DNA of 32,760 nt, taken from the NCBI GenBank assembly GCA_034408725.1, contig JAWXCN010000071.1, positions 1 to 32,760 on the forward strand, given 5' to 3'. Made by a program: the position numbers and the translations under genes. Shown piece after piece: positions 4,626-10,139 of this stretch; the stretch's first letter is position 1; each line of letters opens with the position of its first letter. The DNA comes from Candidatus Hydrogenedentota bacterium. Its GTDB lineage: Bacteria > Hydrogenedentota > Hydrogenedentia > Hydrogenedentales > SLHB01. The notes beneath the pieces were generated by a model, which saw only the letters and a list, made by a program, of their open reading frames with translations, made no database searches and was not told where the DNA came from.

Positions 4626-6368
4626 GTGATGTATGCTCCCGCTTCACAGATACTTCGTTTCGCACTACTGCTTGTGATGGCATGGGCCGCTATCCCGATC
4701 TCGCTTGCGTCTATCGTGCGCGCGCCCTTCGATGAACATTCCTCTGCCGTCTTGAGAAATGGGCGCATCATTGTTCTTGAAGTTAATCCTCCGGATGGCG
4801 CCGGCGAAACTTTCTTCGTGAAATACCTTGCTGAGTCAAACGACAGGAAAAATTACGCCAATAAAGGCGCGGTGGCGCTGCGATTCGCTGACCTCAACCC
4901 GCAAACCCAACGGAACACGTTGTTGGCATTGTTCCGGCAAGACATCGTCGATGAAAAAGGCTGGCGCCACGTCGCCATTCTCAATGGCGGTGAACGGGAG
5001 ACGTTATGGGCGATCGCGGAATGGTTGACAGGATCAGGGAACAATCACGAAAAAATCGCGCAACTAAATGACATTAAGGGCGGCGTGCTCAATCCCGGTC
5101 AGGAAGTGATCATTCCTTTCGACCTCCTGGTTGAAGTCATGCGTGAACCTACAACCGAACGGCTTCCAGCGATTGAAGAAGGCCCGGTAATTCCGGAGGA
5201 ACAGGAGAATCTCGGCGACCTCGCCGCACAGCTCAGTTTCACCAAGCGCGAACGGGATAGTTATGCCGTGTACCGCTTGAAACCCGGTGAAGCCTTGTAT
5301 ACCGCGGTCGTTGTGCGGTTCACGGACATCCGCGAGAACGTGGATATCCTGCGCGCGTGCGACGTGATTCAAAAAGAAAGTCTCATCAACGACGTCACGG
5401 ACATGGATCCGGGCACGGAGATATACATTCCCATCGACCTGCTTGCGGATCGATTCAAACCGGAGTCTAATCCAGATCGCCAGGAGTATGAGTCCATCCT
5501 CGCCGAAGCCAATCGTCTGCGCGGTCAAGTGCGCACGAAAGACCTCGAAGGCGTCGTCGTTATCCTAGATTCGGGTCATGGCGGCAAGGACAAAGGCACG
5601 AGCGCGACGAAGAACGGTTTTACGATTTACGAAGACGAAGTGACCTACGACGTGGCGTGCCGGATCAGGCGCCTGCTACAAACGCAAACCCGCGCCAAAG
5701 TCCACATGACCATGCTTGATCCGGACCAGGGCTTCGAGCCGGTGGATACGGAGCATTTCCCGTCGGACTCTGACGAGAAGGTCCTCGTCACGCCGAATTA
5801 TCCCAATGCGGATGCAAAGGTCTCCGCGAACCTCCGATGGTACCTTGCAAACTCCATCTACCGGCGCGAAGTGAACGGCGGCGCCGATCCGCGCAAAATA
5901 ATATTCACCAGTATCCATTTTGACGCGCTATTCGACGGACGCCTGCGGGGAACAATGGTCTATATCCCCGGTGCCGCGCATCGGCGCGAAAACGAGCGTG
6001 GCGGCTCGATGGCGGTCTACGGCCGCTATGTGGAGGTGCAGGAATCGCCGGAGGTAAAGTCAACGTCTGTTGAGCACCGCCGGGACGAAGCCCTCTCGCG
6101 CAATTTTGCGGCAACGCTGTTGGACGAATTGGGCAAGGCGCGGATTAAACGGCATAGCGTCGGGGATCCCATTCGAAATGTGATCCGGCAATCCGGGGGA
6201 AAACAGTATGTCCCCGCAGTCCTGCGCAACACCCTCGTGCCGACCAAAGTGCTTGTCGAGTGCGCAAACCTCACGAACCCCATCGACTGCAAATGGGCCT
6301 CGCAACCGTGGTGGCGCGAACGCTACGCCGAAGCCTACGTAGCCGCGCTGAAAGCGCACTACCGTTAG
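4626..6368 (+). CDS. N-acetylmuramoyl-L-alanine amidase (Amidase_3) with signal peptide and LysM-like repeats
   Basis: Zn/catalytic motifs 'ILDSGHGGKD', 'YEDEV', 'SIHFD', 'VLVECAN'; LysM-like 'GERETLWAIA...LNPGQEVIIP' and 'YRLKPGEALY...MDPGTEIYIP'. Confidence 0.85.
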   Translation: MMYAPASQILRFALLLVMAWAAIPISLASIVRAPFDEHSSAVLRNGRIIVLEVNPPDGAGETFFVKYLAESNDRKNYANKGAVALRFADLNPQTQRNTLLALFRQDIVDEKGWRHVAILNGGERETLWAIAEWLTGSGNNHEKIAQLNDIKGGVLNPGQEVIIPFDLLVEVMREPTTERLPAIEEGPVIPEEQENLGDLAAQLSFTKRERDSYAVYRLKPGEALYTAVVVRFTDIRENVDILRACDVIQKESLINDVTDMDPGTEIYIPIDLLADRFKPESNPDRQEYESILAEANRLRGQVRTKDLEGVVVILDSGHGGKDKGTSATKNGFTIYEDEVTYDVACRIRRLLQTQTRAKVHMTMLDPDQGFEPVDTEHFPSDSDEKVLVTPNYPNADAKVSANLRWYLANSIYRREVNGGADPRKIIFTSIHFDALFDGRLRGTMVYIPGAAHRRENERGGSMAVYGRYVEVQESPEVKSTSVEHRRDEALSRNFAATLLDELGKARIKRHSVGDPIRNVIRQSGGKQYVPAVLRNTLVPTKVLVECANLTNPIDCKWASQPWWRERYAEAYVAALKAHYR

Positions 6369-6379
6369 AATTCTCCAGC

Positions 6380-7126
6380 TTACCGCGGGAACAATCGTGA
6401 CCGTATCAGCCCCAGTTTCGTCAGCCGGAACTCCAGACCCGTTTTCAGGCAACCCAATCCATACCGCACGCTCCGCCGGAAATTTATCGACGACGCCTCC
6501 TCGAAGTACTTCGTCGGACACGTCACTTCCGCGATATCGAAGCCTTTCCACAGAATTTGCGCGAGCATTTGGTTGTCAAAAACAAAATCGTCAGAATTCG
6601 ATTCCAGCGGCAGCGCCTCAAGAATCTCCCGCGAGAATGCGCGATACCCCGTGTGATACTCCGAAAGTTTCGCGCCCAATAGCACGTTCTCCGCAAAGGT
6701 CAAGAAACGGTTCGACACATATTTCCACACCGGCATGCCGCCGTGCAGCGCATGGCCCCCCAAAATGCGGGAGCCCAGCACGCAGGGGTAAAGGCCATTC
6801 GCGATGATCGAAGTCATCGCTGGAATCAGCAGCGGCGTGTACTGATAGTCCGGGTGGACCATGATGACAATGTCCGCGCCGTGTTCGAGCGCAAGGCGGT
6901 AACAGCTTTTCTGGTTGCCGCCGTAGCCCCGGTTGCTTGGATGAGTGTGTACCGTCACATGGGGCAATAACTTTCCGATCGCCGACGTGTCGTCCTTGCT
7001 CGCGTCATCGACGAGGATTACCTCGTCTACCACGCCCTGCGCCATGACCTCTTCATAGGTTTTCACCAGCGTTTGCGCGGCGTTGTACGCCGGCATTACA
7101 ACGACGATCTTTTTCCCGTTAAACAT
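6380..7126 (-). CDS. Glycosyltransferase family 2 (polyprenol-phosphate glycosyltransferase, DPM1-like)
   Basis: 'VVVMPAYNAA', 'VDDASKD', 'NRGYGGNQK', 'HPDYQY', 'SEYHTGYRAF'; start taken at the ATG of MFNGKK. Confidence 0.9.
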   Translation of the reverse strand: MFNGKKIVVVMPAYNAAQTLVKTYEEVMAQGVVDEVILVDDASKDDTSAIGKLLPHVTVHTHPSNRGYGGNQKSCYRLALEHGADIVIMVHPDYQYTPLLIPAMTSIIANGLYPCVLGSRILGGHALHGGMPVWKYVSNRFLTFAENVLLGAKLSEYHTGYRAFSREILEALPLESNSDDFVFDNQMLAQILWKGFDIAEVTCPTKYFEEASSINFRRSVRYGLGCLKTGLEFRLTKLGLIRSRLFPR

Positions 7127-7134
7127 TGCGCGCG

Positions 7135-7143
7135 AGTGTACCA
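7135..7143 (-). promoter_or_regulatory. Extended -10 promoter (TGG-TACACT) of the GT2 gene, near-leaderless
   Basis: Minus strand TGGTACACT lies 8 nt upstream of the ATG at 7126; no Shine-Dalgarno sequence is present. Confidence 0.5.
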
Positions 7144-7187
7144 GATGCCAACGCGCCACGGCCAAGGCATCTTGGGTATCCGAAGTA

Positions 7188-7227
7188 AAAGCGGCGCTGA
7201 CACGCCGCAGTCCAAGGCGCTGCGCGC
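7188..7227. repeat. REP-like palindromic intergenic repeat (family A, inverted copy)
   Basis: AAAGCGGCGCTGACACGCCGCAGTCCAAGGCGCTGCGCGC is a near reverse complement of 17-59; GCGGCG/CGCCGC stem. Confidence 0.7.
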
Positions 7228-7295
7228 GGCCAATTGCATTTGCCCTGACCTGAAACTTTCACCATTGATTTCTTCCCACGCCACCTCCTACGCTA

Positions 7296-7324
7296 TTGAC
7301 ACTTGCCTTGGTGGCGCATTCAAT
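7296..7324 (+). promoter_or_regulatory. Putative sigma70 promoter for the retron ncRNA/RT
   Basis: Perfect TTGACA (7296-7301), 17-nt spacer, weak -10 TTCAAT (7319-7324). Confidence 0.4.
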
Positions 7325-7444
7325 TGCGCAGGCCGGCGTTTCGCCGGCCAGGTCTTATTGGGCCGTCCGAGAATCACCAGTACTCAATCGAGTAGCAAGG
7401 CAAGACGGATGCCGGGCACGTGTCCGGCATCCGTTTTCCGATGG
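7302..7444 (+). ncRNA. Candidate retron msr-msd RNA
   Basis: Non-coding region directly upstream of a retron-type RT with dense hairpins (7314-7329, 7331-7349, 7381-7394 and a long near-palindrome at 7405-7434) and two candidate a1/a2 inverted-repeat pairs (7302-7310/7396-7404 perfect 9 bp; 7363-7373/7434-7444 imperfect). Confidence 0.6.
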
Positions 7445-7467
7445 ATACGCGGAGAGGGAGCGGGAGC

Positions 7468-8340
7468 ATGTCGTTCTTCAAGAAGCTCTTTAAGGGCAGC
7501 GGGCTAACGGTGGAAGAATTGGCCACGCGCCTGGGCCTGAGTGCAACCGAATTGATTAACTTCACACCGTCCTACCATGAGTTTTTTATCCCCAAACGGA
7601 CAGGTGGCCAACGCCAGATTCTCGCGCCACAACCAGAACTGAAACGCATCCAGCGGCTTATCCTTCGACGCCTTCTCACGCGGCTGCGCGCGCATCCCCA
7701 CGCCGTCGGATTCGAGCGCGGACATTCCATTGTGACTAACGCGGCGTGCCACGTGCGACAAATGGTCGTGGTAAAGATGGATGTCATGGATTTCTTCACC
7801 AACACCACTGCCGCGCGCGTGGAAGATTACTTTCGTTTCATCGGCTGGAACCGCGAAGCCGCTGCCCTGTTAACGAAACTCTGCACACACGGCGGAGGTC
7901 TGCCGCAGGGCGCGCCAACGAGCCCACGCCTGAGCAATCTCGTCAACCACGGACTCGACGCGGCCTTGACCGCCCTCGCAAAGACGGTAGACGCCGCTTA
8001 CACGCGATATGCCGACGACATTACGATTTCGTTTTCTCGCGATGATGAGGACGAGATCAATATGATTCTCAGCACCACGCGGCTCACACTTAAGGATGTG
8101 GGGTACACCCTTCACGAACACAAGAAACGCCGAATCCTGCGCCGGCATCAACGCCAAAAAGTTACCGGCCTCGTCGTGAATGCAAAGGTCCAGTTACCGC
8201 GCGCCACCCGCCGCTGGCTGCGTGCCGTCAGACACCGCACGGCACAGGGCACGAATCCCAGCCTCACAGCCGCCCAACTTCACGGATGGCAGGCCCTGGA
8301 AGCAATGATCGCCAAGCAACGGGAAAACCCGCAGGCGTAA
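7468..8340 (+). CDS. Retron-type RNA-directed DNA polymerase (reverse transcriptase), about 290 aa
   Basis: 'IPKRTGGQRQILAP', region X 'NAACH', 'KMDVMDFF', 'LPQGAPTSPRLSN', catalytic 'YTRYADD', region Y 'QKVTGLVVN'; GGAG-rich RBS before ATG 7468 (ORF is open from 7420). Confidence 0.92.
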   Translation: MSFFKKLFKGSGLTVEELATRLGLSATELINFTPSYHEFFIPKRTGGQRQILAPQPELKRIQRLILRRLLTRLRAHPHAVGFERGHSIVTNAACHVRQMVVVKMDVMDFFTNTTAARVEDYFRFIGWNREAAALLTKLCTHGGGLPQGAPTSPRLSNLVNHGLDAALTALAKTVDAAYTRYADDITISFSRDDEDEINMILSTTRLTLKDVGYTLHEHKKRRILRRHQRQKVTGLVVNAKVQLPRATRRWLRAVRHRTAQGTNPSLTAAQLHGWQALEAMIAKQRENPQA

Positions 8341-8375
8341 TCCATGACGCGCCTTCGGATCGCGCTTGGTGCGCT

Positions 8376-9704
<1,329 letters not shown>

Positions 9705-10139
9705 TTAGTGCTTGCCCGGATTCGTAAGGTCGATACCCGCCTGCTTCAGGGCGGCGTCCTGGACCTGCTGCGCGCGGACGACGTAAATCTGCTGCAATTC
9801 ACCGACGGTAGTGGTGAGCAGCCCCTCTTCTTCGGGCGACAAATTCCCCTTGGTCTTGCCCCGCAGCATCATCAAGGTGTCGATGCAGAATTTTGCTTCC
9901 ACAACGTCGACGATGACTTCCTGCGAGTCGCGCGGAGCGATCAGGCCCAACGCAAACGCGCACTGCGTTGCAAGGCTTTGGATCAACGAGGAAAAAGTCG
10001 CCTCGTCCGGGCGCACGTTCCCGGTTCCGGCCGCCACTTCGGGCGCGACGGACTCGGTCACCTGCCGGGCTTCTTCTTTCTCGCGCTGGACCTGGGATTT
10101 CCAGTCCTCGTCGATGAAAATCTTGGGTTCATCCGCCAT
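9705..10139 (-). CDS. DUF1844 domain-containing protein
   Basis: 'KIFIDEDWKSQVQREKE', 'IDTLMMLRGKTKGNLSPEEEGLL...ELQQIYV'; GGAGG RBS before MADEPK. Confidence 0.85.
   Translation of the reverse strand: MADEPKIFIDEDWKSQVQREKEEARQVTESVAPEVAAGTGNVRPDEATFSSLIQSLATQCAFALGLIAPRDSQEVIVDVVEAKFCIDTLMMLRGKTKGNLSPEEEGLLTTTVGELQQIYVVRAQQVQDAALKQAGIDLTNPGKH

Follow-up and report, generated by a model that had tools for sequence, protein, structure and literature searches.

Thirteen types of tripartite retron are distinguished by Mestre et al. (2020; PMC7736814), who also place stand-alone cassettes, composed of an msr-msd RNA and a reverse transcriptase (RT), in a branch of RT clade 2 (Ec107) and in clade 11. 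Retron-Eco5 (Ec107) is described there as standing alone between housekeeping genes, with neither prophage nor effector. The clade 11 cassettes (PADLOC models RT_outgroup and RT_other; non-coding RNA (ncRNA) families A and B) are given as likewise two-part, with no associated protein. According to the same account, most hosts of orphan retrons are without homologues of the known partners, and the function of the orphans is left open. A locus of this stand-alone kind is described here from the genome of a Candidatus Hydrogenedentota bacterium (genome G000; contig JAWXCN010000071.1, positions 1–32,760, forward strand). The whole of this stretch of 32,760 nucleotides is referred to as the window. 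Positions 7265–8340 probably constitute an intact, self-contained, two-part retron, an RNA gene followed by an RT gene, which would work by the mechanism and in the role proposed below. An earlier annotation of the window, made without database searches (the first-pass annotation), had presented a retron lacking an effector as a surprise. That surprise was overrated: because stand-alone retrons are already on record (Ec107 branch of clade 2, and clade 11; PMC7736814), the element is of a known kind and not of a new one.

The RT is retron-type. Its region X, catalytic and region Y motifs, tested by the definition of PMC7736814, are in frame where they had been annotated, in a protein of about the annotated length (Table 1). 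RVT_1 is the only Pfam domain (69 bits). Every PADLOC retron RT model is matched, at 170–270 bits, best by RT_XIII (270 bits), then by RT_X (239 bits). Against NCBIfam the scores are 208 bits for retron St85 (below its cut-off of 235), 56 for the group II intron RT, 45 for Drt2 and 33 for Drt3a; assignment to group II intron RTs or to the defence-associated RTs (DRT) DRT2 or DRT3 was rejected on these values. Retron models rank first, and all 12 matches in a sequence search of the PDB are retron RTs (best Ec86, 127 bits). The copy number in G000 is one. GTG 7420 was considered as the start codon and rejected, the relatives starting at the codon aligned to ATG 7468 and positions 7420–7467 overlapping the 3' hairpin of the RNA. 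Translation is placed at ATG 7468 (290 aa) because the three closest relatives begin at the aligned codon.

The RT gene is preceded by a structured RNA. A structured leader of about 170 nt had been annotated here; positions 7280–7470 indeed fold far better than shuffled sequence (–94.4 kcal/mol, z = –6.7; 0 of 200 shuffles equal), and the conserved RNA proved to be 137 nt long. Upstream regions were aligned for the window and the three loci closest to it by RT (G003, G020 and G001; G001, G002, G003 and G004 are congeners of G000, and G003 is its nearest relative). Positions 7301–7437 form a sharply delimited conserved block, and the sequence to either side is not conserved. Averaged over columns, identity among the four loci is 86% within the block, at an RT identity of 67–72%. 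In global pairwise comparison of the window with the other three, the RNA block is 77–83% identical in nucleotides and the RT genes 67–68%. Judged by its predicted fold, the RNA has retron msr-msd geometry, with the pairing ends, opposing Gs, msr hairpins and hairpin inside a2 of the layout described by Mestre et al. (2020; PMC7736814). The a1/a2 helix encloses P2–P4, and invariant UGG and GCA place two opposing Gs at its base. The ncRNA criteria listed in a retron census preprint (PMC10849725) are an inverted repeat longer than 8 bp, a G for priming close to the start and, beside the RT, several hairpins; all are found at 7301–7437. Rfam gave no match to the whole window at its gathering threshold, and none to 7150–7520 at E ≤ 10.

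A covariance model, R1, was built from the four aligned sequences and has, accordingly, limited reach; it missed locus L012, whose RNA is visible by eye. Run over 91 sources (the window and other loci), it gave 55 matches at E ≤ 1. It was re-run, for a clean alignment, on the 48 sources with a match at E ≤ 0.011, and "the family" denotes these 48 RT loci, which come from several phyla. Every strong match is full length and lies immediately 5' of the RT gene, on its strand. In the 48-locus alignment 92.7% of 1999 cells are standard pairs, against 35.6–46.5% when the partners are slid by 1–3 columns. Double-sided changes occur in 40 of the 45 pairs, including 8 of the 10 pairs of the a1/a2 helix, and the observed values are attained by none of 500 shuffles. 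Alignment columns U16, G17, G18 and C215 are invariant in all 48 loci, and the opposing G is kept in 46. The hairpin before a2 varies in length and sequence (8–63 nt, median 29.5); the window has 12 nt in the aligned segment, or 14 nt once the closing pair is counted. After the 3' hairpin a T run of at least four is present in 23 of the 48 loci, and at least five T among eight nucleotides in 28. The RNA occurs once per genome in four RT-bearing genomes, always adjoining the RT, and was not found by R1 in the RT-less congener G002.

Defence systems that consist of an RT and an ncRNA and make repeated or extended complementary DNA (cDNA) are exemplified by DRT2 and DRT9. That the RNA of the window serves as template for such a non-classical product, with no branched multicopy single-stranded DNA (msDNA), is distinctly improbable. 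The two-component make-up is the same, the msd-like hairpin of the window is unusually short, and the single-stranded parts of the RNA are also strongly conserved among the four closest loci, at the column and RT identities given above. The RT, however, is of the retron class and not of the unknown-group (UG) class, by the Drt2, Drt3a and St85 scores already cited, and an a1/a2 stem with two opposing invariant Gs corresponds to the priming geometry of retrons. Production of branched msDNA, with G7311 as the candidate branch point, is the preferred reading.

No partner gene accompanies the family. All open reading frames (ORFs) within ±5 kb of 44 close loci were clustered by blastp. The largest real neighbour cluster comprises 6 of the 44 loci; three bigger clusters are ORFs in other frames over the RT gene. 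The Pfam families of the nearest neighbours were tallied from greedy gene calls (44 downstream, 46 upstream), and none is present in more than one of the 44 downstream or two of the 46 upstream neighbours. The neighbours encode varied metabolic and housekeeping functions, and roughly half of those downstream are convergent. The two genes flanking the element in the window, for a family-2 glycosyltransferase (GT2) and for adenylosuccinate synthetase (purA), are each found once, GT2 in the 46 upstream and purA in the 44 downstream neighbours. For the 46 upstream neighbours 40 families were listed, and neither a domain related to integration host factor (IHF) nor VHL ranks within the 25 commonest. 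The same procedure applied to 21 type XIII loci, as a positive control, recovered an upstream gene of ~550 aa (SWIM) in 14 and a gene of ~1000 aa in 7; the control neighbours tested were SWIM_XIII (782 and 591 bits) and WGR_XIII (1125 bits). An effector is thus neither linked to the RT nor fused to it, across the lineage and not only at the locus of the window, and the first-pass description of a stand-alone retron, for which a comparison of homologous neighbourhoods had been proposed, holds.

An effector encoded elsewhere in the genome, with the RT-msDNA complex restraining an unlinked toxin or nuclease until phage infection, would make the element tripartite after all. Characterised retrons work in this way, the possibility is raised for orphan retrons by Mestre et al. 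(PMC7736814), and the patchy, transfer-shaped distribution is as in defence genes. Single loci also have suggestive neighbours, a TIR/RHS gene in G001 and, near purA in G003, a gene for a DUF4143 ATPase. This explanation is considered rather unlikely, though credible. A module moving alone between phyla would shed an unlinked partner at each transfer, and no neighbour recurs. SWIM_XIII had no match in G000 (92% complete), G001, G003 or G020; two matches were obtained in G041, the control genome, each beside a true type XIII RT. WGR_XIII gave only weak, repeat-level matches in the same four host genomes (19–26 bits). The sole SWIM-domain frame of G000 (1274 aa) is without a retron match. A VHL search of G000 gave no match and is of little information, the control being likewise silent.

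By RT model, the nearest described system is type XIII (RT clade 10: Mx162, Mx65, Sa163, Ne144; Mestre et al. 2020): RT_XIII ranks first with the RT of the window and with 8 of the 10 family members examined. With this model, true type XIII RTs reach 422–545 bits, the family 213–290, and a family member in the same Polyangiales genome 211. The type XIII ncRNA has the same element order: an inner CCUUG/CAAGG-type stem, a small hairpin, P3 with the GAUGUUUCGUC motif, a further hairpin and the msd hairpin. In type XIII loci of Bacteroidota and Verrucomicrobiota the P3 motif and this order are seen again in the interval from the SWIM gene to the RT gene. As far as motif and layout indicate, the family RNA is related to the RNA of the XIII clade. 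It is nevertheless distinct: R1 gives no match to type XIII loci at E ≤ 0.01, and the msd hairpin is 8–63 nt in the family as against ~90 nt in the type XIII loci inspected. The family RT is without the N-terminal extension of type XIII, because only positions ~139–413 of the 469-position RT_XIII model are covered. The adjacent SWIM_XIII and WGR/HEAT-ARM genes, present in 14 and 7 of the 21 type XIII loci, are absent from the family.

Together with type XIII, clade 11 is the group nearest to the lineage. Two Mycobacteriales plasmid RTs, called clade-11-type from model scores and not from the list of Mestre et al., score 472–535 bits with RT_other/RT_outgroup, and the family 213–248. Unlike the family RT, they are ~420 aa long and have an N-terminal extension; R1 finds nothing beside them. 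For the Ec107 branch, RT_Ec107-like is among the lower-scoring retron models for the RT of the window (211 bits). Type X (RT clade 7; IHF-like/VHL partner) has a similarly small RT, and RT_X aligns with the RT of the window over its whole length (model positions 21–271 of 272), but the upstream gene in the window is the divergent GT2 and not of IHF/VHL type. Among 301 Planctomycetota genomes RT_X has a match at E ≤ 1e-60 in 43. The top scorer there (283 bits) is 42% identical to the RT of the window over 177 aa and has no R1 match; six of the next nine RT_X loci are family members, with R1 at E ≤ 7e-7.

Trees were computed after removal of duplicates and of rows with an RT match shorter than 180 residues. 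In the tree of 89 RT domains the R1-positive rows lie on one side of a branch and the type XIII references on the other (Shimodaira–Hasegawa-like approximate likelihood ratio test, SH-aLRT, 97), and 47 of the 54 family-side rows carry a confident R1 match. In a tree of 60 rows, a hand-picked subsample, all 35 family rows are on one side (SH-aLRT 98), and the type XIII and clade-11-type references are together on the opposite side (95). Model scores and both trees place the family in a lineage separate from type XIII, and model scores and the 60-row tree set it apart from the two clade-11-type references as well. Five Planctomycetota RTs (L127, L132, L133, L048 and L059), 39–45% identical to that of the window, fall between the family and type XIII; weak upstream R1 matches were obtained for L127, L132 and L133 (E 0.02–0.08). 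These five may represent a further related lineage.

Motifs NAxxH, YADD and VTG are kept across the 48 family RTs. Most frames are full length (271–347 aa), and two are shorter (141 and 256 aa). The RT is under purifying selection, the ratio of non-synonymous to synonymous divergence (dN/dS) against the three closest relatives being 0.08–0.16, with saturated synonymous sites (dS 1.5–2.7). The first-pass annotation had allowed that the locus is a remnant. A decayed remnant of type XIII or of another tripartite retron, its effector lost at this locus, would account for RT_XIII as the best-scoring model and for the P3 motif in common with XIII-clade RNAs. It is rejected as highly improbable: the effector is missing at all 48 loci and not in the window alone, the RT motifs are intact and the RT is under purifying selection, the RNA covaries, and the lineage is separate from type XIII in the tree.

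The lineage is large and environmental, with members in Hydrogenedentota, Planctomycetota, Verrucomicrobiota, Armatimonadota and others. A protein search with the RT of the window gave 2600 matches at E ≤ 1e-10 among 8000 scored candidates. The best 120 of the 2600, from Hydrogenedentota, Armatimonadota, Verrucomicrobiota and Acidobacteriota records, are 56–73% identical (plus one partial self-match) and mostly ~290 aa long. In a genome collection 565 relatives were found, the best 80 of the 565 being mostly from Planctomycetota. Among 41 genomes (G000 and 40 relatives), an RT match at E ≤ 1e-20 is present in 10 and a family-level match (E ≤ 1e-98) in 8, at differing loci. The copies of G001 and G004 are at other loci than in the window, and G002 has no copy. 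The RT of G004 belongs to a sub-lineage different from that of the RTs of G000, G001 and G003, so that one genus holds two sub-lineages. Copies from Polyangiales (Myxococcota) and Burkholderiaceae nest among Planctomycetota copies in the tree. Such a distribution is that of an accessory module exchanged by horizontal transfer, and unlike that of a housekeeping gene fixed by vertical descent. A second, distant retron-like RT is encoded in G020 (L091, G020:C7:182182–182862; 31% identity, E 6.5e-22).

In the SPIRE survey (PMC13712802) the Ec107 branch is reported mainly from Bacillota, and type XIII candidates from Planctomycetota (26). Low-confidence 'clade11-B' candidates, mostly from Planctomycetota, are treated there as heterogeneous and of low priority; they may overlap the lineage of the window. 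No paper describing this lineage was found in the literature searches, and the supplements of Mestre et al. (2020) and of the SPIRE survey may list members.

Transcription signals were predicted from conservation upstream of the RNA. A TTGACA hexamer, annotated earlier as a promoter candidate, is present at 7296–7301; it was rejected as the likely –35 element, not being conserved in the three closest relatives and overlapping the first conserved bases of the RNA. Upstream of the RNA, only the blocks TTGATTT and TAnGCT are conserved among the four closest loci, and the better conserved TTGATT/TACGCT pair (Table 1) would predict a start near 7301.

The following mechanism is proposed; its transcription signals, priming at G7311, msDNA synthesis and biological role are inferred, unlike the anatomy, conservation, covariation, selection, lack of a linked partner and phylogenetic separateness, which are established. 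A promoter of its own probably drives the RNA gene; with a terminator-like hairpin at the end of the RNA, synthesis of the RT would depend on read-through or on a weak internal start. Pairing of a1 with a2 would bring the ends of the RNA together, and the RT would recognise the conserved msr hairpins, P3 above all. Priming would take place from the 2'-OH of the invariant G7311, the RNA being copied leftwards from position 7394. The branched msDNA expected would be very short, with only a few tens of nucleotides. The RT-msDNA particle would be the working unit of the accessory, horizontally exchanged module, and most likely it is a sensor or decoy that acts via unlinked host factors, with no dedicated toxin. 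A bolder form of the proposal is advanced only tentatively and is rather unlikely. It posits a self-sufficient minimal retron, composed of the RT and an RNA of ~140 nt, with an msDNA shorter than any characterised, which would need no toxin for its complete function. The effector would be the small DNA-RNA-RT particle, acting for example as a decoy to which nucleic-acid-binding proteins of phages attach, or the particle would be a domesticated cellular regulator. The element might represent the core form that was elaborated into the type XIII and clade 11 systems.

Several observations weigh against the reading of the locus as a complete two-part retron that makes msDNA. The msd-like hairpin in the clade of the window has only 5 bp (12–14 nt), in place of the canonical long, stable msd stem-loop, and normal msDNA production is uncertain because this hairpin is so short. 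The three nearest relatives have no U run after the 3' hairpin, and a consensus scan found no strict sigma-70 site at the locus. The structure counts come from a model-fitted alignment and are biased towards that structure, although the margin is large. The trees are quick searches with SH-aLRT support only, without bootstrap and without references of clade 7 (types IX and X), and their rows were chosen by likeness to the RT of the window, with the two clade-11-type references added. Seven family-side rows are without a confident R1 match: L004 and L033 have weak matches in the right place, L012 and L040 carry only the P3 motif upstream, and L009, L045 and L046 have nothing. An unlinked effector may exist, and G000 is 92% complete. 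At two single loci a neighbouring gene is noteworthy. In G001 (L092 862–5793, G001:C26) a same-strand ORF of 1644 aa stops 48 nt short of the retron RNA; its product has RHS repeats and, at the N-terminus, a TIR domain. This ORF is not matched by PADLOC and occurs at this locus only. In G003 (L098 6136–7530, G003:C445) a gene for an AAA_14/DUF4143 ATPase adjoins purA where the window has the RT. This gene runs off the contig end, the contig with the RT stops 67 nt past the RT stop codon, and the two ends do not overlap.

Table 1. Features of the retron locus and of its flanks in the window.
Feature	Position	Strand	Remarks
Candidate ncRNA promoter	7265–7294	+	Predicted; –35-like TTGATT 7265–7270, 18-nt spacer, –10-like TACGCT 7289–7294
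Retron ncRNA gene (msr-msd-like)	7301–7437	+	137 nt; directly upstream of RT
a1	7302–7310	+	Pairs with a2; ends in invariant UUG
Unpaired G7311	7311	+	Candidate priming/branch G; invariant in 48/48 loci
P2 hairpin	7314–7329	+	msr-like
P3 hairpin	7331–7349	+	msr-like; near-invariant 8-bp stem, UUU loop
P4 hairpin	7351–7364	+	msr-like
Linker	7365–7380	+	
msd-like hairpin	7381–7394	+	Short, variable
G7395	7395	+	Opposite G7311; G in 46/48 loci
a2	7396–7404	+	
3' hairpin	7405–7434	+	GC-rich, terminator-like; U run 7434–7437 (UUUU)
Putative ribosome-binding site	7451–7460	+	Purine-rich, GGAGAGGGAG; 7 nt before ATG; predicted from sequence
Retron-type RT	7468–8340	+	290 aa; no N-terminal extension, no fused domain
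Region X, NAACH	7738–7752	+	In frame in RT
Catalytic motif, YADD	8008–8019	+	In frame in RT
Region Y, VTG	8161–8169	+	In frame in RT
GT2, family-2 glycosyltransferase	6380–7165	–	Flank, not part of the element; divergent; Pfam Glycos_transf_2
purA, adenylosuccinate synthetase	8376–9692	–	Flank, not part of the element; convergent; Pfam Adenylsucc_synt, 607 bits

The flanks are as annotated before: the divergent GT2, the convergent purA and the 35-bp gap between the RT stop and purA (8341–8375) are confirmed by the sequence and by Pfam. The neighbours do bear out the earlier description of a site among core housekeeping genes; the site itself is a synteny break within the genus, because GT2 and purA sit on different contigs in G001, G002 and G004, and it carries a repeat at 7166–7236. 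GT2 is present in G001, G002 and G004 without an RT alongside. In G003 the order GT2-RNA-RT is the same as in the window (GT2 93% and RT 72% identical). The RT-less G002 (L095 400–4400, G002:C3) has ~4 kb with several genes between an amidase gene and GT2, which are adjacent in the window, and the region is therefore variable on both sides of GT2.

Positions 7166–7236 are one copy of a high-copy interspersed repeat of 55–70 nt, with 74 matches in G000. Many copies are at contig ends, and some are in arrays with a spacing of ~210 nt (e.g. G000:C64:18393–19083). An inverted partial copy of ~26 nt lies beside full copies, and the repeat resembles an element of the repetitive extragenic palindrome/bacterial interspersed mosaic element (REP/BIME) type. 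Metagenome contigs break within it, at 7206/7207, where the summed depth passes from ~10 to ~890. None of the contigs from four DNA runs covers the entire interval 6000–10000, and a look-up of RNA sequencing runs gave none that contains the locus. The repeat is absent from the retron site of G003.

For the engineering of retrons towards DNA production, the very short msd-like segment may be of interest. The lineage of the window is a third effector-less lineage beside the two on record, and the tripartite picture of retrons is not overturned by it. The role of effector-less retrons is a question raised by Mestre et al. (2020) and unanswered in the literature searched. The lineage is a good test case for it, being large and compact (~1.1 kb) and having a well-defined, covarying RNA, and its type XIII relatives with partner genes allow a direct comparison with the two-part lineage.

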